Origin: a bacterium
GTDB lineage: Bacteria > Patescibacteriota > Andersenbacteria > UBA10190 > CAIZMI01
Direction: 5' to 3'
Length of the DNA stretch: 55,785 nt
Assembly (NCBI GenBank): GCA_030647555.1
Contig: JAUSJG010000030.1
Location: forward strand, 1-55,785
The position numbers were made by a program, and so were the translations under genes. Position 1 is the stretch's first letter. Each line of letters begins with the position of its first letter. Under the pieces are notes generated by a model, which was not told the DNA's origin, searched no databases, and was given only the letters and a program-made list of their open reading frames with translations. This document shows positions 3,335 to 55,682 of the stretch, piece after piece.

Positions 3335-4207
3335 TTAGACCGAAATTGGCTTACGCTGTGAAGTAGTGGAAATACGCCTTGAAACACCAATTTTGTCGCT
3401 TTTTTCTGACAATCCGGTGGTTCGTTGACCAATTGTCTCTTGATACAACACAACTAAGAAGGCTACTCCGAGAAGCATAAGAATGGCGGGAACCAGCCAA
3501 TACGCAAGCGGTAATGGTTGGACAATATATGAGGCAACAACGACGAAAATGGTCCATCCAACCAGGCGTAAGGCAATCGGCTTAAAATTTGGACGAATTA
3601 GTGTGACGCTATGTGTAAGAGCAGTTAGTCCTGACTTATTGTCGATTGAGGCAATGAGTTGAGCAAAAGAAAGCCAAACACCAATTACGAAAACCGGTAT
3701 TAAAAAGATAATTGCAGTGATCAGAACAAGAAGTTCGGCGACTGCCAAGGGCATAAATTGCGCAAGCATTTGTGTACCCAAAACGCCAGACCAATAGTTT
3801 AGAATTAAGACCGGAACAAGGGAGACGAAGACAAAAACCGCCAAAATAATTTCGGTGAACAAGAAGGCGGGAAAACGTTGAGTACCAATTTGAAGTGCCT
3901 TGCGAGCGCCAATTGCTTTAGTGGTGGAAAAAATGGCATAAAGGCCGACTTTTACAATTTCACAGAGAATTAGGAAAGTAACGGAGGCAATAAGCGCGAC
4001 AACAAAGAAAACCAATGTCACCCCTCGCAATGAAGGAGTTAAATTATATTGGTCGTAATTGGCGAGGTCGATTAGGTAGGGTAACGTAAAAGCAAAAGGG
4101 ACAAGCGGGAGAAGTGCTAATTTAATCGCCGTAACTTTGTGTAACCGTAATAAACGGAATGCACTCGATACTTGTTCTGTAAACGTGGAGTATTTAGCTG
4201 TTGTCAT
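3335..4207 (-). CDS. polytopic membrane protein, function unknown
   Basis: 290-aa ORF with about 6-7 long hydrophobic segments; no recognisable motif. Confidence 0.6.
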   Translation of the reverse strand: MTTAKYSTFTEQVSSAFRLLRLHKVTAIKLALLPLVPFAFTLPYLIDLANYDQYNLTPSLRGVTLVFFVVALIASVTFLILCEIVKVGLYAIFSTTKAIGARKALQIGTQRFPAFLFTEIILAVFVFVSLVPVLILNYWSGVLGTQMLAQFMPLAVAELLVLITAIIFLIPVFVIGVWLSFAQLIASIDNKSGLTALTHSVTLIRPNFKPIALRLVGWTIFVVVASYIVQPLPLAYWLVPAILMLLGVAFLVVLYQETIGQRTTGLSEKSDKIGVSRRISTTSQRKPISV

Positions 4208-4335
4208 GGTTATGTGTTTGTATTAATTAATTTGGTTAAAGGTATTATATAGTGTCTGATTTAATTTTGCTAGTTCCATTTATTTTTGTCGATAGTTTTG
4301 TGTAGTGTTTAGTCAAATTTATATGTGGTACGGGG

Positions 4336-24896: not shown

Positions 24897-25853
24897 ATGT
24901 TATTGCGCGGAATTTATTATCGTCCCGTATTTAACGCGTCCGGAGCGCGGGGACCTTTTGGGGAAGGCTACAAAGCAGATCGTCTCTGGGGACCACTGAG
25001 GGCGCGTTTCGGTAACTGCGGTTTTAACGCCAAAACCACGACGTTGCTTGCCAATGCAGGCAATATGCCCATGCGGCCGGATGGAATTACGCCGCAGGAA
25101 ATTTTTCCTCGGTGTATTTATGTCGATATTTTCAAGGAAATTATGCTTAATGCGGTGGGCTTAAGCGGTCCAGGCTTGGAATTTCTGCTTAATGACGGAC
25201 GCTGGCAGGCACGAATGGAACCATTTTTCATTTCGTTTAGCCCTATCGGCAAAACACGTGATGAGCGCCTGGACGAGACGCAGGTGTTCGTGGATTTGCT
25301 ACAGCCACTTTTACCTTCGTTTCGATCACGTGTCGGTTTGGAGATTGACATTTCCTGCCCGAATGTCGGTCACGATCCCAATGAATGGATTTATGAAGTG
25401 CTGCACCTGCTGGATATTACTCTGGTGCTGAATATGCCCCAGCAATGTAAATTCAATGCGGTGGCTTCACCGGAGCTGGTGTCGGAAGTTTGCAGTCATC
25501 CGGCGTGCGACGCTGTTGTGGTGTCAAACACGATTCCTTGGTTGATGCTGCCGGAATGGATTGATTGGCATAAGCTTTTTGGAATGAGTGTTTCACCGTT
25601 GGCGCGTCGGGGTTTCAGTGACGGCGGGTTGTCCGGTTGGCCACTTCTACCGATTGTCTGTAACTGGATCAGAGAGATCAGAAAAAGAGGTTTCAAAAAA
25701 CCAATTTGGGCGTGTGGCGGGATTGATTCGGTTAGGGCGGTTGATAAAGTGCACGTGGCCGGTGCCAGTGGTATTCAAGTCGGATGCGTCAAAAGCCTGC
25801 GTCCATGGCGAGTGCCGGGCATCATCCGACGGGCGCACGAGTTGTTTGAGTAG
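24897..25853 (+). CDS. pyrD: class-1 dihydroorotate dehydrogenase-like flavoprotein
   Basis: ATG at 24897 with AAGGAG 6 nt upstream; NASGARG, NAVGLSGPG, EIDISCPNV (active-site Cys motif), GGLSG, ACGGI..GASGIQVG. Confidence 0.65.
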   Translation: MLLRGIYYRPVFNASGARGPFGEGYKADRLWGPLRARFGNCGFNAKTTTLLANAGNMPMRPDGITPQEIFPRCIYVDIFKEIMLNAVGLSGPGLEFLLNDGRWQARMEPFFISFSPIGKTRDERLDETQVFVDLLQPLLPSFRSRVGLEIDISCPNVGHDPNEWIYEVLHLLDITLVLNMPQQCKFNAVASPELVSEVCSHPACDAVVVSNTIPWLMLPEWIDWHKLFGMSVSPLARRGFSDGGLSGWPLLPIVCNWIREIRKRGFKKPIWACGGIDSVRAVDKVHVAGASGIQVGCVKSLRPWRVPGIIRRAHELFE

Positions 25854-25922
25854 TATTTTCTTTCGTTAATCACAGGTCTTCAGTGGCCTGTTTTTTAATT
25901 TGGCTCATATTTTTTTCAAAAG

Positions 25923-25952
25923 AAAAAACCGCCAGGGTGTGGGGTGGCGGTT
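25923..25952 (-). terminator. intrinsic terminator candidate for 25960-26274
   Basis: AACCGCC...GGCGGTT stem with an A-run on the plus strand. Confidence 0.55.
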
Positions 25953-25959
25953 GGACTGC

Positions 25960-26274
25960 TTAGGTTGCGGTTGTGGCAACTGTGGCGTTTTTCGGTTCGA
26001 GAGCCGTTCGAACCTCGTTTATGATTGCGCTCATTTCTTCTTGAATCCACTCCTTTGAGTCTTCTTCGCTGAACGTTAAGCAGATAACTCTGTTGTCATC
26101 TATAACGAGTCCTGTTTTCACGGGCAGGTCACTGTAATTCGGGCCAGAATAGCAGAAAACTACTCGTCCAGTTGTGTCAGCCTCGACAAAGAAATCGTCA
26201 TGCTTTCCAAGTTCATTGAGAAACCTGGTAAACAAAGCAGTCATGGACTGGTGGATCTGGTGATTGGGTAGCAT
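25960..26274 (-). CDS. hypothetical protein
   Basis: 104-aa ORF with AGGAGGG SD upstream. Confidence 0.55.
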   Translation of the reverse strand: MLPNHQIHQSMTALFTRFLNELGKHDDFFVEADTTGRVVFCYSGPNYSDLPVKTGLVIDDNRVICLTFSEEDSKEWIQEEMSAIINEVRTALEPKNATVATTAT

Positions 26275-26410
26275 TACGAGCCCTCCTTTATCCTGTGTGT
26301 AAAGTGCGCCCCCTCTAATTAAATTGTAGAACTATTAAATTGCAAATACAAAAAACTGAAGCAGTTCAGTTTTTTGTGACAGCCGTCCGACTCCCGTTAA
26401 GCCAATGTTG

Positions 26411-26505
26411 CTCCGAAATCTTCGCGCGTCCGAGCGCGAAGATTTCGGAGTTCTTCGATTCTTGTGCAAAACAACCAAACAGGATGTTTGGTTGTTTTGT
26501 GTACA
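26411..26505 (+). repeat. multi-hairpin trailer element, copy 1
   Basis: CTCCGAAATCTTCGCGCGTCCGAGCGCGAAGATTTCGGAG + TTCTTCGATTCTTGTGC + AAAACAACCAAACAGGATGTTTGGTTGTTTT. Confidence 0.7.
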
Positions 26506-26529
26506 TTAGGATTGTTTTGCTTCGCAAAT

Positions 26530-27150
26530 TTAAACAATAGGTTGCCTGAGAATTGTTCGCAATTTCTTTGGTGCAGTTTTCCTCATATCACTCAAATAAA
26601 TTTCGTGATGTTTTTGAACTAATCCGTCAAAGGCATACCCATTTTCTTTTATGAAAGTATGAAGGTTGGCGATAGTTGGTCCTTCGTCTTTGTATGCACC
26701 AATATACAAAATTTGTGCACAAAGACTCTCATCTAGTGTCTCAAGATGGAGTTTGCTTAAAGCGGGTAATTCCTTTTTAGATTTTACTTCCTCAAAAGCC
26801 GTATCAAACATTTTTTTAGTTACAAAATTTGGTTGAACAATAAATATTTTCCATTTCCATAAATCTTTGTTTTTTATGGAAAAATCCCTCATATCATCCA
26901 TCCACCACAACCCCTCTAGTGGCATAACCGCGAAATCTTTATTTAATTTCTTACATGCAAATTTGATTTTATATACCATCGAGTAAAGTGCTTCTGTTGC
27001 ATTTTTAAATTCTACAGACGTGTTTGGATTCCCTTGACCGATCACAGAAATGATCGTTTGTTTGGATACGGTAACAAACGAAGGTTGCTTGGCCGAAGGA
27101 CAATAAAGTTGTTTTAGTTCTTTCTTGAGATCAAGTTTCATAATTTTCAC
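26530..27150 (-). CDS. GyrI-like small-molecule-binding domain protein
   Basis: LYCPSAKQPSFVTV, PLEGLWWMDD, W.WKIFIVQPNFVT, HHEIYLSDMRKTAPKKLRTILRQPI are typical of the GyrI-like/effector-binding family. Confidence 0.7.
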   Translation of the reverse strand: MKIMKLDLKKELKQLYCPSAKQPSFVTVSKQTIISVIGQGNPNTSVEFKNATEALYSMVYKIKFACKKLNKDFAVMPLEGLWWMDDMRDFSIKNKDLWKWKIFIVQPNFVTKKMFDTAFEEVKSKKELPALSKLHLETLDESLCAQILYIGAYKDEGPTIANLHTFIKENGYAFDGLVQKHHEIYLSDMRKTAPKKLRTILRQPIV

Positions 27151-28110: not shown

Positions 28111-28426
28111 GCCGCGGTAGCTCAGCGGTAGAGCGCAGCCCTGGAAACTTCGGGGCCCGGTACAGCAATGAACCGTGAATAACTGGGTGAATTCGGGGAA
28201 ACTTTCTTTCGTCTTTGGAAAAACAAAGACCCATGCCAGCCCATGGACAGAAACAATCCCGAGCCGAGCCAAAAAGGGTAACAAGTTTTTTGGAAGGTGT
28301 AGAGACTAGCGGGTGAGTCCCAACGATAATCCCGCACTAGCGCCCAGCTCCGTGATATTACGGATGATGAGATAGTCCAAATAAAGGAAGAGGCTGGCGT
28401 CGACAGTTCGACTCTGTCCCGCGGCA
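28111..28426 (+). tRNA. tRNA-Phe(GAA) interrupted by a 244-nt group I intron
   Basis: exon 1 GCCGCGGTAGCTCAGCGGTAGAGCGCAGCCCT + exon 2 GAAGAGGCTGGCGTCGACAGTTCGACTCTGTCCCGCGGCA gives a canonical cloverleaf with loop CTGAAGA. Confidence 0.8.
28143..28386 (+). ncRNA. group I intron (ORF-less) in the anticodon loop, between U33 and G34
   Basis: 5' exon ends in U that can pair CCCU with the internal guide GGGG (28152-28155); intron ends in G; R/S-like core GTAGAGACTAGCGG (28299-28312) and GAGATAGTCC (28369-28378) forming a P7-like GACUA/UAGUC. Confidence 0.75.
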
Positions 28427-28553
28427 CTCGAGATTTGTTTCGCTTTGCGAAACAACCAAGGGTACACCAAATGACCAAACATCCTGTTTGGTCATTTGGC
28501 ACAAGAATCGAAGAACTCCGAGAATGAGCGCCAAGAGGCGTGAATTCTCGGAG
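28427..28553 (-). repeat. multi-hairpin trailer element, copy 2 (directly 3' of tRNA-Phe)
   Basis: CTCGAGATTTGTTTCGCTTTGCGAAAC identical to the tRNA-Leu trailer, then hairpins CCAAATGACCAAAC..GTTTGGTCATTTGG and CTCCGAGAAT..ATTCTCGGAG. Confidence 0.7.
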
Positions 28554-28565
28554 CCAATTTATACA

Positions 28566-28590
28566 AAAATCCGGCTTTCGCCGGATTTTT
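28566..28590. terminator. bidirectional intrinsic terminator
   Basis: AAAAATCCGGCTTTCGCCGGATTTTT between convergent tRNA-Phe and 28617-29303. Confidence 0.7.
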
Positions 28591-28616
28591 CGCTTATACT
28601 CCAACTTTCTAATAAA

Positions 28617-33116: not shown

Positions 33117-33277
33117 AATTTTCAATTATCAATTCCCAATTTTTCCGCCATCGGGCGGACCCGCCGTCGTGGCGGGCAATAAATTATCAATGGCCTAATT
33201 ATCAATTACGACGTCGTCTTTTGATAATTTAAAATTTGATCATTAATTGATAATTGGTCATTGAAAATTGATAATTT
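33117..33277. repeat. AT-rich long palindromic intergenic element, copy 4, carrying a nested 33-nt GC insert
   Basis: collinear with copies 3 and 5 except for 33144-33176. Confidence 0.75.
33144..33176 (+). mobile_element. 33-nt GC-rich double-hairpin insertion element
   Basis: TCCGCCATCGGGCGGACCCGCCGTCGTGGCGGG sits between cccaatttt and caataaatt, which are contiguous in copies 3 and 5; second copy at 53220-53252. Confidence 0.7.
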
Positions 33278-52615: not shown

Positions 52616-53014
52616 ATGACCGAAGATAAAAAGATGAAAATTCTACTTGTTGAGGATGAGCCGGCAATTAGCAAAGTATATGCGGAGGAGCTAACTGATG
52701 AAGGATTTGTCACGCTTACGGCAACGAATGGCAGAGATGGCTTAGAGCTTGCGCTTGTTGAAAAGCCCGATCTTATTTTACTCGATATCCTCATGCCGAT
52801 AATGGATGGTCTCACAATGATGGACCAACTGCGCAAAAAAAACGAATACGGAAGGAAAGTTCCGATCATTCTTTTAACCAATTTGTCCGCGGATGAGGAA
52901 AGAATTATTAAAGCAATCGTGGAAAATGAACCTGTGTATTATGTGGTAAAATCTGATTACAAACTAAGCGATGTGGTGAAGATGGTGCGAGAGGGGCTTA
53001 CTCGGATATCATAA
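52616..53014 (+). CDS. stand-alone response-regulator receiver domain
   Basis: KILLVEDEP, LILLDILMP (phospho-Asp), LTN, K; start among three in-frame ATGs (52589/52616/52634) is uncertain. Confidence 0.8.
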   Translation: MTEDKKMKILLVEDEPAISKVYAEELTDEGFVTLTATNGRDGLELALVEKPDLILLDILMPIMDGLTMMDQLRKKNEYGRKVPIILLTNLSADEERIIKAIVENEPVYYVVKSDYKLSDVVKMVREGLTRIS

Positions 53015-53019
53015 TAAAG

Positions 53020-53090
53020 TCGGGGCGACAGGATTTGGCTTCATCGTCCTTTGCCCAGTACATTTATTGTGCTGGGCGAAACGATGCGCC
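53020..53090 (-). pseudogene. tRNA-Pro 3' fragment with a hairpin inserted in the anticodon loop
   Basis: matches the intact copy in TCGGGGCGACAGGATTTG and ..CATCGTCC / GAAACGATGCGCC, with a 28-nt hairpin TTTGCCCAGTACATTTATTGTGCTGGGC in between; lacks the 5' acceptor and D arm. Confidence 0.6.
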
Positions 53091-53104
53091 TGTTAAATTG
53101 TCCG

Positions 53105-53176
53105 TCGGGGCGACAGGATTTGAACCTGCGGCCTCATCGTCCCGAACGATGCGCGCTACCACTGCGCTACGCCCCG
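53105..53176 (-). tRNA. tRNA-Pro(CGG)
   Basis: CGGGGCG-TA-GCGCAGTGGTAGCGC-G-CATCG-TTCGGGA-CGATG-AGGCC-GCAGGTTCAAATCCTGT-CGCCCCG-A. Confidence 0.9.
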
Positions 53177-53213
53177 ACGAACAATTCAACACCTCAATTT
53201 TTACTAATTTTTT

Positions 53214-53306
53214 GATTTGCCCGCCACATCGGCGGGTCCGCCTGCTGGCGGAAACCTGCGGCCTCATCGTCCCGAACGATGCGCGCTACCACTGCGCTAC
53301 GCCCCG
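53214..53306 (-). pseudogene. tRNA-Pro(CGG) copy truncated after the T loop and carrying the 33-nt GC element
   Basis: 53253-53306 is 54/54 identical to 53123-53176; insert after GGTT; CAAATC follows, then homology ends (no 3' T stem or acceptor). Confidence 0.75.
53220..53252 (-). mobile_element. 33-nt GC-rich double-hairpin insertion element (second copy)
   Basis: gene-sense TCCGCCAGCAGGCGGACCCGCCGATGTGGCGGG; stems identical to 33144-33176, loops differ. Confidence 0.7.
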
Positions 53307-53318
53307 AAATTTTTTATG

Positions 53319-53390
53319 TGGACCTGGCGGGACTCGAACCCGCGGTCTTTAGTATGCCATACTAACGCTTTTCCTCTAAGCTACAGGCCC
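53319..53390 (-). tRNA. tRNA-Ala(GGC)
   Basis: GGGCCTG acceptor with G3:U70, anticodon arm TTAGT-ATGGCAT-ACTAA, T arm GCGGG-TTCGAGT-CCCGC. Confidence 0.85.
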
Positions 53391-53469
53391 CCAACTTCGC
53401 TCTGTCTTGCTAGCCAGAGCTTCGCTGGGCAGGCAATGGAGATATTTACCACTGCTTGTCCCGCGAAGC

Positions 53470-54174
53470 TCAATCAAGAGATTGAGCGGAGTGGGAAGCT
53501 ACAGGCCCTAATTTTTCTAATAGTACTTTGGGAAGTGTTTCTAACTCTAGTTGTTTATCGGTTCCGGCGCAACCGATGATACATACGCCGTGATAATCCT
53601 TTTTTAATGTCGGTTTACCAATTGTGCGAGGATCAGGTTTAGACTGGCAAAAGTTTTTAATTGGAATACCCAGTGTCTTAGACCAATATTTATGCAATTT
53701 ATGAAGATTCTGATCAGCCCTATAACTCATTGATGCGTGAAGAACATCACGACTGATACCGTAGCATTTTTCAAGTAGCAGTACATACAGTCCCATTAAT
53801 TCTGGAGAGGAACTTCCCAACTGAAGACCTCGGTGTCCTGCCCATTTATAACCCTCTCCAAGATATAGAAATGAAAGTGCGATTTTATATATTTGAGGAT
53901 CCGGGTCATGTAAAAAATCCTCACATGTTTGTTGAATTGCAGCCATTCTGTCTTCTTGTTTTTTCCTACTATAAGCCAACGAATTTACCCTGCCACGCGC
54001 CAGACTTTTTAACATATTTTCCTTGTAAGCTTTCATGTAAGCTGGAGGAAGTTTTACGTCTTTTAACCAATAAGAAAGTGTACCTTTTGGAATTTTTCGC
54101 CCAAGAGCTTCTTGAATATCACCAAAAGTTTTTCCTTGTGCTCTTAGTTTCTGCGCCATTTCTTTTTCTGTCAT
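53470..54174 (-). CDS. HTH + single-motif LAGLIDADG-like endonuclease-family protein (paralog of 27326-28024)
   Basis: AQGKTFGDIQEALGRKIPKGTLSYWL; ALSFLYLGEGYKW; LQLGSSSPELMGLYVLLLEK. Confidence 0.55.
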   Translation of the reverse strand: MTEKEMAQKLRAQGKTFGDIQEALGRKIPKGTLSYWLKDVKLPPAYMKAYKENMLKSLARGRVNSLAYSRKKQEDRMAAIQQTCEDFLHDPDPQIYKIALSFLYLGEGYKWAGHRGLQLGSSSPELMGLYVLLLEKCYGISRDVLHASMSYRADQNLHKLHKYWSKTLGIPIKNFCQSKPDPRTIGKPTLKKDYHGVCIIGCAGTDKQLELETLPKVLLEKLGPVASHSAQSLD

Positions 54175-54278
54175 GTTGTAATTATACTCCGCGCCTATTC
54201 CATGTGCAATATCGTTTATGAGAAAAATCCATATTGCAGAAATTCAAATAATAAGTAAAAATAGGCGTACAGACGTAG

Positions 54279-54520
54279 GGGCCGTTAGCTCAGCCAGTAG
54301 GATTGTCGGCAATGAGTTGCCGAATCGGGGCAATCCTTCGGTGGGATGAGCCGGCTCCGCCGGAACATTATTTCACCGTAGAGCGCTACATTCGCATTGT
54401 AGAGGTCGGCGGTTCGCCGGAGCACCATGTGGGGAGCGGCGGGTTCCCCGAGAACATTCTGTGAATGTTCGAGAGGGTGCCAGCTCGCGTCCAGTACCCT
54501 ACGTGGTACTGGACGAATCC
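54279..54520 (+). pseudogene. tRNA-Ala(CGC) copy with structured inserts in the D loop and T loop, 3' end missing
   Basis: GGGCCGTTAGCTCAGC[about 83 nt]GTAGAGCGCTACATTCGCATTGTAGAGGTCGGCGGTTCG[about 105 nt]AATCC, then no acceptor 3' strand. Confidence 0.65.
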
Positions 54521-54565
54521 AAATTGCTATTTTCAAAAGCATGTTTGTATCATGATCAAATATTA

Positions 54566-54665
54566 GGGCTCGTAGCTCAGCTGGCAGAGCGCGGCATTCG
54601 CATTGCCGAGGTCAAGGGTTCGCTCGCTATCGCAGCGAGCGCCCGCTGAAATAGCGGGCGAATCC
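54566..54665 (+). pseudogene. second tRNA-Ala(CGC)-like copy with a 38-nt double hairpin in the T loop, 3' end missing
   Basis: GGGCTCGTAGCTCAGCTGGCAGAGCGCGGCATTCGCATTGCCGAGGTCAAGGGTTCG[CTCGCTATCGCAGCGAGCGCCCGCTGAAATAGCGGGCG]AATCC. Confidence 0.65.
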
Positions 54666-54697
54666 TAGCATTTCATTATATAATTGATTAATTACCA

Positions 54698-54773
54698 GGG
54701 CCGTTAGCTCAGCTGGCAGAGCGCTACATTCGCATTGTAGAGGTCGGCGGTTCGAATCCGCCACGGTCCACCA
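54698..54773 (+). tRNA. tRNA-Ala(CGC)
   Basis: GGGCCGT acceptor with G3:U70, CTACA-TTCGCAT-TGTAG, GGCGG-TTCGAAT-CCGCC, ACGGTCC-A-CCA. Confidence 0.9.
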
Positions 54774-54778
54774 AAATC

Positions 54779-55228
54779 ATGCGTGAAATACTAGACAGGC
54801 CCGGTGACGGTATTCTTTGCGCGGTAGCCATCATGATTAAAGGTGACAAAATTCTTGTTGGTCATCGGCATTACACAAAAGACAAATGGAAAGTTATTTC
54901 TGTTTGGACTATTCCTGGTGGTAGATCTGATAAGGGTGAAATTATTGAACAAACATTGCGACGCGAGGTTGCGGAAGAAGTCGGTATTTCTGAATTTGAA
55001 ATTGTTGATTTTATTGGAGAAGTACCTGGAGCTAAAGAAGGCGACGTGGTTTTAATTTTCCATTGTGAAACTGGTCAGGAAGCGAAACTCATGGAACCGG
55101 AAAAATTTTCGGAGTGGAGATGGGTTTCGATTGATGATTATATTTCGGAAGAAAAGTACAGTGGCTTTAATCCGGTTGCCAAGCAAATGATAGTGAATTA
55201 TTTGCTCGGTTTACGAAGGGGAAAATAA
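54779..55228 (+). CDS. Nudix hydrolase
   Basis: Nudix box GGRSDKGEIIEQTLRREVAEEVGI; ATG 5 nt after the tRNA CCA end. Confidence 0.85.
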   Translation: MREILDRPGDGILCAVAIMIKGDKILVGHRHYTKDKWKVISVWTIPGGRSDKGEIIEQTLRREVAEEVGISEFEIVDFIGEVPGAKEGDVVLIFHCETGQEAKLMEPEKFSEWRWVSIDDYISEEKYSGFNPVAKQMIVNYLLGLRRGK

Positions 55229-55234
55229 CTTGAT

Positions 55235-55638
55235 ATGTCCTGGTATCTCTATATCGCGCAAGCGCAAAAGACGGGGAATTATTATGTTGGAATTTCCACG
55301 GATGTGAAAAAGCGGATTATTGCGCACAATAAGGGTAAGGCCTCGTCCGTAAATAAATTCCCCAAGATTATACTCACTGCATCTTTAACTGCAAGCACTT
55401 CTCAATCGTAAAACCTTTCACCGTACTGCTAGTACGCCTCAAGGTTTTACTCAATCAAAGTACTTACATTTAAAGCGCATTGAGTATAATCTTGGGGAAT
55501 TTATTTACGGACGAGGCCTAAGGGAGCGTAATGGCGCGGACGCAGGAGCCGTTCGTTTTGGTTTACAAATCAAAAAACTGCCGACGTAGTTGGTGGTTTC
55601 GATCGAATACCATGATGCCGATATCCTATGGCGACTGA
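55235..55638 (+). pseudogene. GIY-YIG (UPF0213-like) nuclease gene disrupted by a MITE and a frame change
   Basis: MSWYLYIAQAQKTGNYYVGISTDVKKRIIAHNKGK up to 55338; after the insert GA-stop, while ..EPFVLVY.. continues in another frame. Confidence 0.5.
55339..55518. mobile_element. 180-nt MITE with perfect 38-bp terminal inverted repeats and TAA flanks
   Basis: GGCCTCGTCCGTAAATAAATTCCCCAAGATTATACTCA at 55339-55376, exact reverse complement at 55481-55518; TAA on both sides (55336-55338, 55519-55521). Confidence 0.8.
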
Positions 55639-55682
55639 CGTAAATAACCTGTCCATATTCTGTTCAATACGCTCTGAATACT

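Follow-up and report, generated by a model that had tools for sequence, protein, structure and literature searches.

The genome of a groundwater Patescibacteria (CPR) member carries, upstream of a live tRNA-Ala(CGC) gene, two further tRNA-Ala(CGC) sequences interrupted by hairpin-rich inserts. This raises the question of whether these are functional genes in pieces or remnants of broken genes and, if the latter, why they are broken where they are. The sequence studied was contig JAUSJG010000030.1 of assembly GCA_030647555.1 (55,785 nt in full, referred to as the window). Two forms of the gene, A-type and B-type, occur at this locus, and L095, L002 and L005 denote the locus in relatives. The array and its surroundings were found to contain the following features:

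54175–54278, + strand: upstream/promoter region original to the resident tRNA-Ala(CGC), aligning with L095 upstream of the uninterrupted A-type gene
54279–54294, + strand: copy 1, tRNA positions 1–16, 16/16 identical to the intact gene
54295–54379, + strand: structured D-loop insert of copy 1, 85 nt, in place of positions 17–20
54380–54416, + strand: copy 1, positions 21–57 (D-stem 3′ strand, anticodon arm, T-stem 5′ strand, TTCG), 37/37 identical
54417–54514, + strand: T-loop insert of copy 1, 98 nt after GGTTCG, with H1 (54417–54487) and H2 (54488–54514)
54431–54484, + strand: hairpin pair nested in the H1 loop, a dispersed repeat
54515–54520, + strand: GAATCC, T-loop positions 57–62 of copy 1, where tRNA homology stops
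54521–54565, + strand: spacer 1, with a promoter-like TTGCTA-18-TATCAT (54524–54553; consensus match) serving the next unit
54566–54622, + strand: copy 2, tRNA positions 1–57, one difference compared to the intact B-type genes of L002 and L005 (nhmmer E-value 5e-8)
54623–54659, + strand: T-loop tandem hairpin pair of copy 2, two near-identical 7-bp hairpins (fold z-score −5.9)
54660–54665, + strand: GAATCC of copy 2, where tRNA homology stops
54666–54697, + strand: spacer 2, AT-rich, its end TAATTACCA matching the L095 spacer 3′ of the A-type gene
54698–54773, + strand: intact tRNA-Ala(CGC), A-type, the sole live copy (ARAGORN; Rfam 66.6 bits)

The two decayed copies reported by a first-pass annotation were shown by ARAGORN, Rfam and alignments to be real, 3′-truncated genes (54279–54520 and 54566–54665), both upstream of 54698–54773, which was the one intact tRNA-Ala(CGC) in the array (ARAGORN and Rfam). 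Copy 1 had been described as matching the intact gene base for base, and positions 1–16 and 21–57 were indeed 100% identical; both of its inserts were present as well, but measured 85 and 98 nt instead of about 83 and 105 nt. The 85-nt insert separates G19 from T20 and is flanked on either side by a TAG repeat. Copy 2 was 31/33 identical over positions 8–40, and its anticodon stem reads CGGCA/TGCCG, a compensated change compared to CTACA/TGTAG. The suggestion that it is a distinct isodecoder was borne out by the B-type gene, which was found intact in L002 and L005. Its tandem hairpin (37–38 nt) sits after GGTTCG and is followed by GAATCC. As also claimed, no acceptor 3′ strand follows GAATCC in either copy, and neither forms the complete cloverleaf, with T and acceptor stem, of a functional tRNA gene. 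Neither was called by ARAGORN; copy 1 gave no Rfam tRNA match, and copy 2 scored 22.7 bits, under the 29-bit threshold, with the T arm skipped. No B-type 3′ end was found in the window, and the only A-type 3′ end was that of the intact gene. Neither copy is a tRNA, and a functional RNA of another kind is unlikely; none of the RNA runs checked holds the array region.

Misassembly was considered and rejected, the array being tiled by independent Logan contigs, among them one of 361 nt from the same sample that covers 54387–54747 with zero differences. The sole ambiguity is a 37-nt exact repeat joining the D-loop insert to copy 1, a linkage supported by the original assembly and by the contigs having equal depth.

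Each relative had a single intact tRNA-Ala(CGC) at this locus. In L095 the A-type gene was uninterrupted at this place (69 bits) and preceded by the same upstream sequence as copy 1. L002 showed the order A 5′ part, hairpins, GAATCC, the same spacer, an intact B-type gene, a terminator, a structured region and the A 3′ end, so that the 3′ end missing from the gene of copy 1 was found downstream of the intact B-type gene. In L005, two 5′ modules were followed by the intact B gene and then by GAATCCCTTCG. H1 and H2 were also found in L002 and L005, there without the nested part, and H2 was 28/28 identical to that of L002. The first 18 nt of spacer 1 were identical in L002, the remainder being about one-third diverged. 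H2, GAATCC and these 18 nt together were 52/52 identical between the window and L002, compared to 81% protein identity of the flanking ORFs, which points to constraint on this stretch; the promoter-like site explains it in part. A sequence able to complete the cloverleaf, which the first-pass annotation had named as grounds for abandoning decay, was indeed present downstream in relatives and, in the case of tRNA-Pro, in the window as well. However, a whole tRNA gene separates it from the 5′ part, and it is decaying. The A 3′ end of L002 has a T-stem mismatch, the tRNA-Pro remnant of L002 has two uncompensated anticodon-stem changes, and a Pro-like copy in L095 is degenerate. Judged on these sequences, the downstream 3′ end looks like a displaced remnant and not like an exon.

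Similar remnants accompany two neighbouring tRNA genes in the window:

53253–53306, − strand: tRNA-Pro(CGG) 5′ remnant, positions 1–54, 54/54 identical to the intact gene
53220–53252, − strand: T-loop double hairpin of this remnant, 33 nt, followed by CAAATC (53219–53214)
53104–53176, − strand: intact tRNA-Pro(CGG) (ARAGORN, Rfam)
53019–53103, − strand: degenerate Pro copy (positions 23–47, with a hairpin in the anticodon loop) plus 3′ remnant
53037–53019, − strand: tRNA-Pro 3′ remnant, positions 55–73, downstream of the intact tRNA-Pro, 19/19 identical
53390–53318, − strand: intact tRNA-Ala(GGC)
53391–53508, − strand: tRNA-Ala(GGC) 5′ remnant and hairpin-rich insert of 105 nt, preceding the intact tRNA-Ala(GGC)
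53470–54174, − strand: conserved Patescibacteria ORF (about 228 aa, HTH and alpha/beta domain) that reads into the old tRNA start
33144–33176, + strand: second copy of the Pro-type double hairpin, intergenic between TTTT and CAAT, 29/33 identical

The broken tRNA-Pro copy of the earlier annotation was likewise real, with positions 1–54 (100% identical) followed by the 33-nt double hairpin and CAAATC. Its 5′ part (1–54, and 55–60 past the hairpins) and its 3′ part (55–73) flank the intact tRNA-Pro. Remnant and live Pro gene have GGCC in common in the window and GGTC in L002, which supports concerted evolution. The tRNA-Ala(GGC) remnant consists of 13 nt (positions 1–13, 53508–53496), and the adjoining insert occurs at 3–4 times baseline depth; in L095 the tRNA lies directly at the ORF end. 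The Pro 3′ fragment, the 13-nt Ala(GGC) fragment and the hairpin copy at 33144–33176 were absent from the earlier annotation.

Across the loci surveyed, 5′ remnants ended at positions 13–19 or 53–63 and 3′ remnants started at positions 55–58 (22/86 loci). At least six remnants break within positions 60–63 and four more within 13–19, and none of the loci surveyed showed a break in the anticodon arm or acceptor stem. The break between T loop and 3′ T stem, which had been claimed to be non-random, was seen again in L002 and twice in L005, and in L040 at position 53; 3′ fragments starting at positions 55–58 were found in six other Patescibacteria tRNAs. The same short core was present at both junctions: CAAATC ends the 5′ and starts the 3′ Pro remnant in the window, and GAATCC and GAATCa do so for Ala in L002. 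This is the direct repeat of a T-loop core expected of insertion by an integrase.

The T-loop hairpin pairs are dispersed repeats and not the product of random decay. The Pro-type double hairpins at 53220 and 33144 have identical stems and differ in the loops only, and this pair reached an X1 contig depth of 187 compared to a baseline of about 11. Counted over the whole metagenome and not over a single genome, as Logan contigs are, the pair nested in H1 was found on seven other X1 contigs (genome-like depth of 12–13.5, 88–93% identity, different flanks) and the copy 2 pair on one further X1 contig and three X2 contigs. On these, GGGTTCG before and GAATCC after the pair were retained and the outer flanks differed. 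On one X1 contig a copy 2-type pair lies 6 nt past an anticodon-arm-like hairpin with a TTC triplet, so that one repeat copy elsewhere in the metagenome apparently sits in a Glu-like T loop. Fold z-scores of the insert hairpins ranged from −2.8 to −5.9 (−3.7 for the T-loop insert of copy 1). Multiple copies that differ in their flanks, and hairpins that remain stable despite sequence change, are the marks of REP- or double-hairpin-type elements, and the earlier idea of a preferred target for hairpin elements fits these data.

The D-loop insert belongs to a family of its own. It was 86% identical to the D-loop insert in the tRNA-Pro remnant of L002, and a third variant was found in a B-type Ala remnant from run X2. 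Across these three different tRNA remnants, 13/13 pairs were kept and 8/13 were compensated, a result matched by 0/500 shuffles (fold z-score −3.2). The compensated helices show selection on the structure, which could act on an RNA. Besides this insert, two further element types were named, CGCCGGAACC..GGTGGCCAG and GGGTCGG..CCGTGYAGGAAG. A metagenome-wide scan with the D-loop insert motif TGTCGGCAANNNGTTGCCGAATC gave nine matches, of which all eight inspected were chance, non-tRNA and mostly coding-like occurrences. H2 had no match in a viral-contig scan, and a permissive script for otherwise intact tRNAs with a T-loop insert returned just the known cases and noise. A resemblance of CCGCCACG to GTCCA in the alignment, which might have meant that the T-loop insert derives from the 3′ end of the tRNA itself, was too weak to be retained. 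A GIY-YIG gene 0.5 kb away was found to be interrupted by a MITE, which indicates that small elements have been mobile in this genome.

On balance, we lean towards the view that copies 1 and 2 are the dead remains of former tRNA-Ala(CGC) genes in a recombination-prone cluster and that the hairpin inserts came later. Comparison with the relatives shows that the locus began with a single A-type gene free of interruptions, the state seen in L095. This gene was broken in its T loop in the L002/L005 lineage, where the break is followed by a unit with its own promoter, a full B-type tRNA-Ala(CGC) gene, a terminator and a structured tail, and the old 3′ end GAATCaGCCACGGTCCA was displaced downstream; in the window lineage the B-type gene was broken likewise, with an A-type gene following and the displaced 3′ ends gone. 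Resident genes were thus replaced in turn, each being cut at T-loop positions 61–62 and fused to the next unit with its promoter and tRNA. The breaks fall at the junction of T loop and 3′ T stem (positions 61–63) and the surviving 3′ remnants start at 55–57, so that a core of 5–6 nt (GAATCC/CAAATC) lies at both junctions. Such geometry would be expected from site-specific recombination with a 6–7 bp T-loop overlap, in which the incoming DNA would bring its own tRNA gene and not just a tRNA 3′ end; palindrome-stimulated deletion or duplication would give the same junctions.

The dead copies would later have gained small GC-rich palindromic elements, namely tandem hairpin pairs in the T-loop TTCGAA/TTCAA and the 85-nt element at G19/T20 of the D loop. 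Insertion into a live gene would be harmful, and this would explain why the elements are seen in dead copies only. Shared lineage-specific bases suggest that gene conversion from the live neighbour may keep the tRNA parts near-identical. No integrase, transposase or HUH enzyme was found in the 55.8-kb window (45 ORFs) or among the 15 ORFs flanking the relatives' arrays, and no integrase gene lay in or beside the inserted DNA. The would-be integrating units, of only about 180–300 nt, are small for a recombinase substrate, which counts against such insertion. The constraint on H2, GAATCC and the start of spacer 1 and the selection on the structure of the D-loop insert also count against the reading as dead remnants. 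The enzyme and any RNA-level role are inferred.

A broader reading, which we put forward tentatively and regard as rather doubtful, is that small structure-dependent elements targeting both tRNA loops make up a so far undescribed Patescibacteria system of three components. Positions 19/20 of the D loop may be the target of an element of about 85 nt, hairpin pairs or larger elements may insert into the T loop at positions 55–57, and tRNA-gene cassettes of 0.2–0.3 kb may recombine at the 6-nt T-loop core. The cassette tail was found to include an antisense copy of the local T arm, which covaries with the neighbouring tRNA (L027, L041, L048, L059, L069, L002, L005). If this reading holds, cassette exchange would replace tRNA genes in these reduced genomes through a trans-acting enzyme, which, like integron integrases, might recognise single-stranded DNA in its folded form.

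The order of events could also be reversed, an alternative that we consider unlikely. Hairpins would then have inserted into the T loop first, and the palindrome would have stalled replication or been cut, giving deletions or duplications a few bases away; or dispersed copies in TTCGAATCC-like targets would have recombined and swapped right flanks. The T-loop-truncated remnants of the window, L002 and L005 all carry a hairpin pair 6 nt before the break, by which the hairpins may be the cause of the break and not a later arrival. The GGTTCG and CGAATCC flanks can pair and lengthen the palindrome, and the conservation of GGGTTCG and GAATCC around the copy 2 pair, with differing outer flanks, also fits. 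However, the remnant of L040 is T-loop-truncated and has no hairpins, and the Pro-like copy of L095 has a large T-loop insert with a contiguous 3′ end and no truncation, which shows truncation and insertion to be separable. The 3′ remnants downstream are not explained by this alone.

It is somewhat less likely still that no site-specific process was involved, and that the tRNA gene and its promoter underwent ordinary tandem duplication, after which the copies decayed at random, with deletions and insertions by chance. There are tandem copies and chimeras of tRNAs, and the modules of L005 mix A-type and B-type parts. The match of the end of spacer 2 to the L095 spacer also fits, and a duplication with its right end inside the gene would place a truncated copy upstream of an intact one. 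The clustering of breaks at positions 60–63 and 13–19 speaks against it, as do 3′ remnants past the intact gene without a repeat of the intervening DNA and inserts that are not random sequence but belong to repeat families and to a structure family with covariation.

Far less probable is the reading of the inserts as introns, split-tRNA halves or structured non-coding RNAs that are co-transcribed and processed or joined, or that act as leaders or decoys. The insert sites, 19/20 and 56/57, coincide with the two nucleotides whose pairing forms the outer corner of the tRNA elbow. The D-loop insert helices are fully compensated in three tRNA contexts, copies 1 and 2 retain intact anticodon arms, and a matching 3′ end lies downstream in L002 and for tRNA-Pro in the window. 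Against this, no copy forms a T or acceptor stem or scores as a tRNA, and each remnant has an intact gene of the same anticodon next to it. Two exons forming a mature cloverleaf were not found, as the B-type 3′ end is absent from the window and the A 3′ end of L002 lies beyond a whole tRNA gene, and uncompensated stem changes occur in the A 3′ end of L002 and in the Pro remnants of both L002 and L095. A split-tRNA arrangement was rejected, the 3′ pieces being nested around the live gene and decaying; by eye, neither complementary leader and trailer sequences nor a bulge-helix-bulge motif at the D-loop insert junctions was seen. No tRNA splicing endonuclease is known from bacteria. The inserts matched no known RNA family at permissive thresholds (Rfam; window region and eight relatives) and no group I intron core (E-value up to 10 in the window and up to 1 in relatives); at 33–98 nt and in D and T loops, they differ from group I introns of bacterial tRNAs, which have a catalytic core and lie in the anticodon loop.

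The first-pass annotation had called the adjacent ORF (53470–54174) LAGLIDADG-like and suspected it as the cause of the breaks; neither proposal was upheld. No Pfam LAGLIDADG match was obtained at an E-value up to 0.1, a family profile found no relative and no nuclease among PDB sequences, and PHROGs gave nothing. The AlphaFold model (mean pLDDT 90) had no Foldseek hit below E 0.001 in PDB and no endonuclease, and its predicted topology of alternating helices and single strands is unlike the LAGLIDADG alpha-beta-beta-alpha-beta-beta-alpha fold. Relatives of the ORF were present in 198 stretches of GTDB representative genomes, and in the 80 loci fetched and examined a tRNA lay at the ORF 3′ end in all but three, tRNA-Ala(GGC) in 73/80. 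This placement was independent of nearby fragments and mostly without them; judging from it, the ORF behaves as a resident gene and is a conserved partner of tRNA-Ala(GGC), and its fixed position beside a tRNA with or without fragments (77/80 loci) makes it a poor suspect. Free-standing homing endonucleases are known in tRNA clusters of T4-like phages, but despite this precedent, an LYLGEG motif, an N-terminal helix-turn-helix and its position next to tRNA genes in every relative, it is highly improbable that the ORF encodes a homing-type nuclease that cuts tRNA T loops and drives rearrangement, given the absence of any sequence or nuclease fold match, the deviating topology and its nearly invariable site 5′ of tRNA-Ala(GGC).

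Under the favoured reading, that of dead remnants in a recombination-prone cluster, the locus would record how tRNA genes turn over in CPR bacteria, whose genomes are small and whose tRNAs are mostly present once: the resident gene breaks at one fixed point, an incoming copy replaces it and the fossils stay. The analysis identifies two hot spots in these bacteria, the D loop and the T loop, at which tRNA genes break and structured repeats insert; these loops are the longest stretches common to nearly all tRNA genes. It also provides concrete element families, one with clear covariation, for comparison across complete genomes. For annotation, such remnants matter in that they break short-read assemblies, lengthen neighbouring ORFs, as here where an old tRNA start is read through, and may be taken for intron-containing or split tRNAs.

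Sublocation classes of integration within tRNA genes were reportedly distinguished by Williams in 2002. The integrase of mycobacteriophage Ms6 crosses over in the T loop of tRNA-Ala (PMC1762012). Like the targets of such integrases, the genes studied here are affected in the T loop, tRNA-Ala among them, with a short core at both junctions and a 3′ fragment of 17–19 nt, from the T loop to the 3′ end, downstream of the live gene. In contrast, known elements are kilobases long and carry an integrase gene and the tRNA 3′ end only, whereas here an insert of 0.2–0.3 kb with no integrase found would contain a whole tRNA gene and promoter and leave a 5′ remnant upstream.

REP, BIME and REPIN sequences are dispersed palindromic repeats of bacteria. 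Mitochondrial double-hairpin elements and GC clusters are cited in PMC5910586 and PMC4478555. The hairpin pairs resemble both groups in being short, GC-rich, often tandem and present in many copies in an AT-richer genome, and also in their nesting, their location in non-essential DNA and their link to rearrangements. They differ in the apparent preference for the tRNA T-loop TTCGAA/TTCAA and in the host, a CPR bacterium; no RAYT or other mobilising enzyme for hairpin repeats was found within the window.

The non-canonical introns and split tRNAs of archaea (Fujishima et al., 2009, 2010, summarised in PMC10714607) also present short structured inserts at the same position of different tRNAs, in D and T loops, and genes in pieces. 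The archaeal introns are cut at a bulge-helix-bulge by a splicing endonuclease and give functional tRNAs, whereas in the present array there is no 3′ half, the copies decay, an intact paralogue is adjacent and the motif was not seen.

Integron gene cassettes have folded attC sites with the core GTTRRRY and are inserted by the IntI integrase at an attI site. The present units have no IntI gene or attI, and their cargo would be a tRNA gene with its own promoter. They nevertheless share with cassettes the arrangement as small tandem units, and the T loop GTTCGAA appears to resemble the GTTRRRY core. The post-tRNA elements of the relatives likewise have two inverted arms around a variable structured centre, one arm being antisense to the T loop and T-stem 3′ strand and the other formed by the start of the 3′ fragment.

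The tRNA-Ala(CGC) array is a real, non-random feature, and is best read as tRNA pseudogene remnants of serial replacement at a T-loop hot spot, with dispersed structured repeats later settling in the remnants. The tRNA genes and remnants of the region were as follows.

54279-54294, + strand: copy 1, positions 1-16, every base as in the intact gene
54295-54379, + strand: copy 1, D-loop insert, 85 nt
54380-54416, + strand: copy 1, positions 21-57, every base as in the intact gene
54417-54514, + strand: copy 1, T-loop insert, 98 nt, directly 3′ of GGTTCG
54515-54520, + strand: copy 1, terminal GAATCC, then unrelated AT-rich DNA
54566-54665, + strand: copy 2, a different isodecoder, anticodon-stem changes compensated
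54698-54773, + strand: intact tRNA-Ala(CGC) (ARAGORN, Rfam)
53508-53496, - strand: tRNA-Ala(GGC) 5′ remnant, 13 nt
53306-53253, - strand: tRNA-Pro(CGG) 5′ remnant, positions 1-54, 100% identical to the intact gene
Between the Pro 5′ remnant and the intact Pro gene, - strand: 33-nt double hairpin, then CAAATC, then 37-nt spacer
53176-53104, - strand: intact tRNA-Pro(CGG)
Between the intact Pro gene and the Pro 3′ remnant, - strand: 66-nt degenerate partial Pro copy
53037-53019, - strand: tRNA-Pro 3′ remnant, positions 55-73, 100% identical to the intact gene

The window is a chromosome piece of a groundwater Patescibacteria/Parcubacteria organism. The sequencing runs matching it were groundwater metagenomes, protein relatives carry the names Parcubacteria or Portnoybacteria, and it contains housekeeping genes (KsgA, UvrD, RNase Y, ClpP, trigger factor, NusA and H+-pyrophosphatase) and tRNAs (six by ARAGORN, five by Rfam). 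From the same sample, an independent Logan contig of 361 nt matched 54387-54747 with 0 differences, and the Logan contigs tiling the array were of equal depth (~10-15). The linkage of the D-loop insert to copy 1 passes through a 37-nt exact repeat and thus rests on the original assembly.

Sequence comparison bore out the two truncated copies that the first-pass annotation had placed 5′ of the intact tRNA-Ala(CGC), with no 3′ strand past GAATCC. In copy 2, GGTTCG is followed by a tandem hairpin of 37-38 nt, GAATCC and unrelated DNA, and neither the T stem nor the acceptor stem can form in either copy. No 3′ end of the copy 2 isodecoder (B-type) was found in the window, and the sole 3′ end there of the type common to copy 1 and the intact gene (A-type) is that of the intact gene. 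The assignment of copy 2 to a different isodecoder held as well, its sequence being intact in relatives (L002, L003, L005 and L006). The broken tRNA-Pro copy was likewise recovered (5′ part, hairpins and CAAATC), together with a 3′ remnant beyond the intact gene; from the order of the pieces, CAAATC is both the end of the 5′ remnant and the start of the 3′ remnant. At tRNA-Ala(GGC), 105 nt of hairpins separate the 5′ remnant from the intact gene, and the neighbouring ORF (53470-54174) runs across the old tRNA start.

Close relatives, obtained by way of this ORF, showed that resident genes were disrupted and replaced serially. Locus L095 (ORF 77% identical) contained an uninterrupted A-type tRNA-Ala(CGC) (69 bits) with the same upstream sequence as copy 1, which identifies copy 1 as a resident gene that was disrupted later. 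In L002, L003 and L006 (ORF 81% identical), the A-type 5′ part lacks the D-loop insert and is followed by the two T-loop hairpins of copy 1 (H1 and H2), and then by GAATCC and a spacer that starts as in the window. An intact B-type tRNA and a terminator come next, and ~150 nt of structured sequence separate them from the A-type 3′ end, GAATCaGCCACGGTCCA. In L005, two 5′ modules precede the intact B-type gene, and the structured region between that gene and GAATCCCTTCG is longer. Exactly one intact tRNA-Ala(CGC), of A-type in some genomes and of B-type in others, was present at the array locus of each.

The remnants show decay. Two changes in the anticodon stem of the L002 Pro remnant are uncompensated, the A-type 3′ end in L002 contains a T-stem mismatch, and L095 has a badly degenerate Pro-like copy with 115 nt inserted in its T loop and its 3′ end contiguous. 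Yet they seem to be homogenised with the live gene. The Pro remnant and the live Pro gene share lineage-specific bases (GGCC in the window, GGTC in L002), which points to gene conversion and would explain why the tRNA parts of the remnants are near-identical though not functional.

Breakpoints were surveyed in 86 loci (the window, close relatives and 80 GTDB-representative loci encoding the ORF family), and tRNA fragments were present in 22. The 5′ remnants ended either in the D arm or D loop, at positions 13-19 (window Ala(GGC), L016, L041, L010), or at the T loop, at 53-63 (two window Ala, window Pro, L002, two in L005, L040), and 3′ remnants began at 55-58 (window Pro, two in L027, L041, L048, L059, L069). 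No break in the anticodon arm or acceptor stem was found among these remnants. The non-random breakage suspected at the boundary of T loop and 3′ T stem was thereby supported: breaks there fall at a fixed point of the T loop, and both junctions contain a core of 5-6 nt. L040 is truncated at the T loop without hairpins, and in the L095 Pro-like copy an insert is present but the tRNA is not truncated, so that breakage and insertion are separable processes with the same target.

The inserts were shown to be elements, belonging to repeat or structure families, rather than debris; none matched an Rfam family. Another copy of the Pro hairpin pair, identical in its stems and different in its loops, lies at 33144-33176 in the gap between two unrelated genes; the depth of the pair in the sample contigs peaked at 187 against a baseline of ~11. 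The hairpins at 54431-54484, a pair nested in the loop of H1 (54417-54487) in copy 1, are absent in L002 and L005; seven further contigs with the depth of this genome also carry them, between different flanks. The copy 2 pair was present on four other contigs, with GGGTTCG 5′ in two, GAATCC 3′ in two and both in one; on one of the four it lies 3′ of an anticodon-arm-like hairpin with a TTC triplet, and thus seems to sit in the T loop of another tRNA. Within each pair the two hairpins are near-duplicates, and the flanks GGTTCG and CGAATCC lengthen the palindrome, since TTCGAA forms a palindrome by itself and the CG is duplicated. The D-loop insert shares 86% identity with one that the L002 tRNA-Pro remnant has at the same D-loop position, and a third variant was found in a B-type Ala remnant from sequencing run X2. 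Across the three variants, 13/13 pairs of the 5′ domain were kept, with compensatory double changes in 8/13 (0/500 shuffles equally good), and an unpaired ATCRGGG was conserved.

A motif pair, CGSCGGRWYC - hairpin - GAG..GGTG(G)CCAG, joins three elements (window 54431-54484 and 54351-54367; L002 6240-6270; L095 ~60-110, - strand): the nested repeat of copy 1, the large inserts in the T loops of the Pro remnants in L002 and L095, and an element 3′ of the L002 and L005 Ala genes. CGCCGGAAC is present too in the 3′ half of the D-loop insert. The common motif pair suggests a single superfamily of repeats.

Downstream by 0.5 kb, a GIY-YIG gene (55235-55640) is split after codon 35 by a 186-nt MITE-like element (~55340-55525) with perfect inverted ends of 39-41 bp (GGCCTCGTCCGTAAATAAATTCCCCAAGATTATACTCA) and a TAAG target duplication. 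Deletion in silico restored an open frame of ~88 codons, and the orthologue in L002 (7809-8078) is uninterrupted. The element's contig depth of ~160, against ~12 alongside, indicates multiple copies in the sample; a weak Rfam 'mir-559' match corresponds to its palindrome. Small elements have thus been mobile in this genome.

Site-specific exchange with an overlap in the T loop (55/57 to 61/62) would fit the junction geometry, and might bring in a small unit of a promoter and a whole tRNA. The spacer 3′ of GAATCC contains a promoter-like TTCGTA-type site, TTGCTA-18-TATCAT, conserved in L002. Hairpin and D-loop elements would settle in the dead copies afterwards, probably preferring conserved loop sequences, and selection would purge insertions from the live gene. 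The main alternative is that palindrome-stimulated deletion or duplication produces the breaks. Weak points of this account are the very small size of the putative units and the negative searches: neither a recombinase nor a transposase turned up in the window or next to the arrays in relatives, and no RNA run contained the region.

The adjacent ORF, suspected in the first-pass annotation as a LAGLIDADG-like gene, was rejected as the nuclease behind the breaks: Pfam, PHROGs and PDB sequence searches gave no nuclease relatives, its AlphaFold model (mean pLDDT 90) lacks LAGLIDADG topology and had no PDB fold match below E 0.001, and most of the 80 ORF loci have no tRNA fragments nearby. It belongs to a Patescibacteria family of ~228 aa (- strand; 82 relatives found, no structural relatives in PDB). 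Its N-terminal helix-turn-helix and long helix are accompanied by an alpha/beta domain that carries the conserved motifs LYLGEG-K, R-DQ, DPRT-GK and Y-GVC. tRNA-Ala(GGC) starts at or just beyond its 3′ end in 73/80 representative loci, and tRNA-Val(GAC) in four more. The ORF is a resident partner of the tRNA-Ala(GGC) gene and not a convincing culprit. Its stop codon often lies within the first bases of the tRNA, with C-termini ..GP and ..GPVA (window 53470-54174, loci L006-L085). Directly 5′ of the ORF, where tRNA-Arg(CCT) sits elsewhere, three loci contained tRNA-like sequences (L062 3843-3920, L032 3876-3950, L045 3524-3600) with good D and T arms, odd anticodon loops and acceptor strands that are direct repeats, not complementary; ARAGORN called no tRNA in them.

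Compared with L002 (3740-6560), the block of tRNA-Ala(CGC) array, ORF, tRNA-Ala(GGC) and tRNA-Pro (52950-54800) is inverted, flanked on the outside by the same genes in both: Wzy_C/DUF192 at one end and NUDIX/GIY-YIG at the other. Gene gain or loss was seen at its borders (histidine kinase and response regulator in the window; GATase, nucleoside deoxyribosyltransferase and a 302-aa ORF in L002). The L002 tRNA-Ala(GGC) resembles A-type tRNA-Ala(CGC) with the anticodon changed (86% identical).

A recurrent architecture was found 3′ of tRNA genes in other Patescibacteria (L027 2561-2713 and 3646-3817; L041 2487-2665; L048 3754-3941; L059 6048-6175; L069 1182-1349; L002 ~4090-4261; L005 ~130-416). 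The tRNA is followed by a terminator hairpin and by an antisense segment that copies the T loop and 3′ T-stem strand of this very tRNA. A structured core (in four cases with a conserved GGGTCGG-hairpin-CCGTGYAGGAAG) comes next, and then a 3′ fragment of the tRNA, 17-19 nt long and starting in the T loop. Antisense segment and fragment form a closing helix covarying with the local tRNA; there was no Rfam match and no recombinase nearby. In the window, a tRNA-like start (GCGGTAGCTCAGCGGTAGAGCGC) at 28113-28210 (+ strand) leads into non-tRNA sequence with a final motif common to L037 6675-6760 (GGGTGAATTCGGGGAA), overlaps a doubtful ORF (28122-28604, - strand), and could represent a further disrupted tRNA or an RNA not yet recognised. 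A 680-nt intergenic gap (25853-26530) contains a T-loop-like palindrome GGTTCGAGAGCCGTTCGAACC (25994-26014), an inverted 15-nt tRNA-Gly T-arm fragment (26385-26399) and a 17-bp perfect hairpin (26411-26450).

A cassette or element system of a truly new kind is considered possible but unlikely. Mobile non-canonical tRNA introns occur in Thermoproteales (PMC10714607), and the inserts common to D-loop and T-loop positions recall them; of their defining features, both exons and a functional product were not found here, and no bulge-helix-bulge was seen by eye at the D-loop junctions. The closest known situation is the debris of integrases crossing over in the T loop of a tRNA gene, such as Ms6, which integrates in tRNA-Ala (PMC1762012). 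Unlike such debris, no integrase was seen here in the window or the array flanks in relatives, a whole tRNA gene is imported, the 5′ remnant stays, and the insert is only 0.2-0.3 kb. The hairpin pairs are similar to REP/BIME elements, and to mitochondrial double-hairpin elements (PMC5910586, PMC4478555), and differ from both in their apparent T-loop preference.
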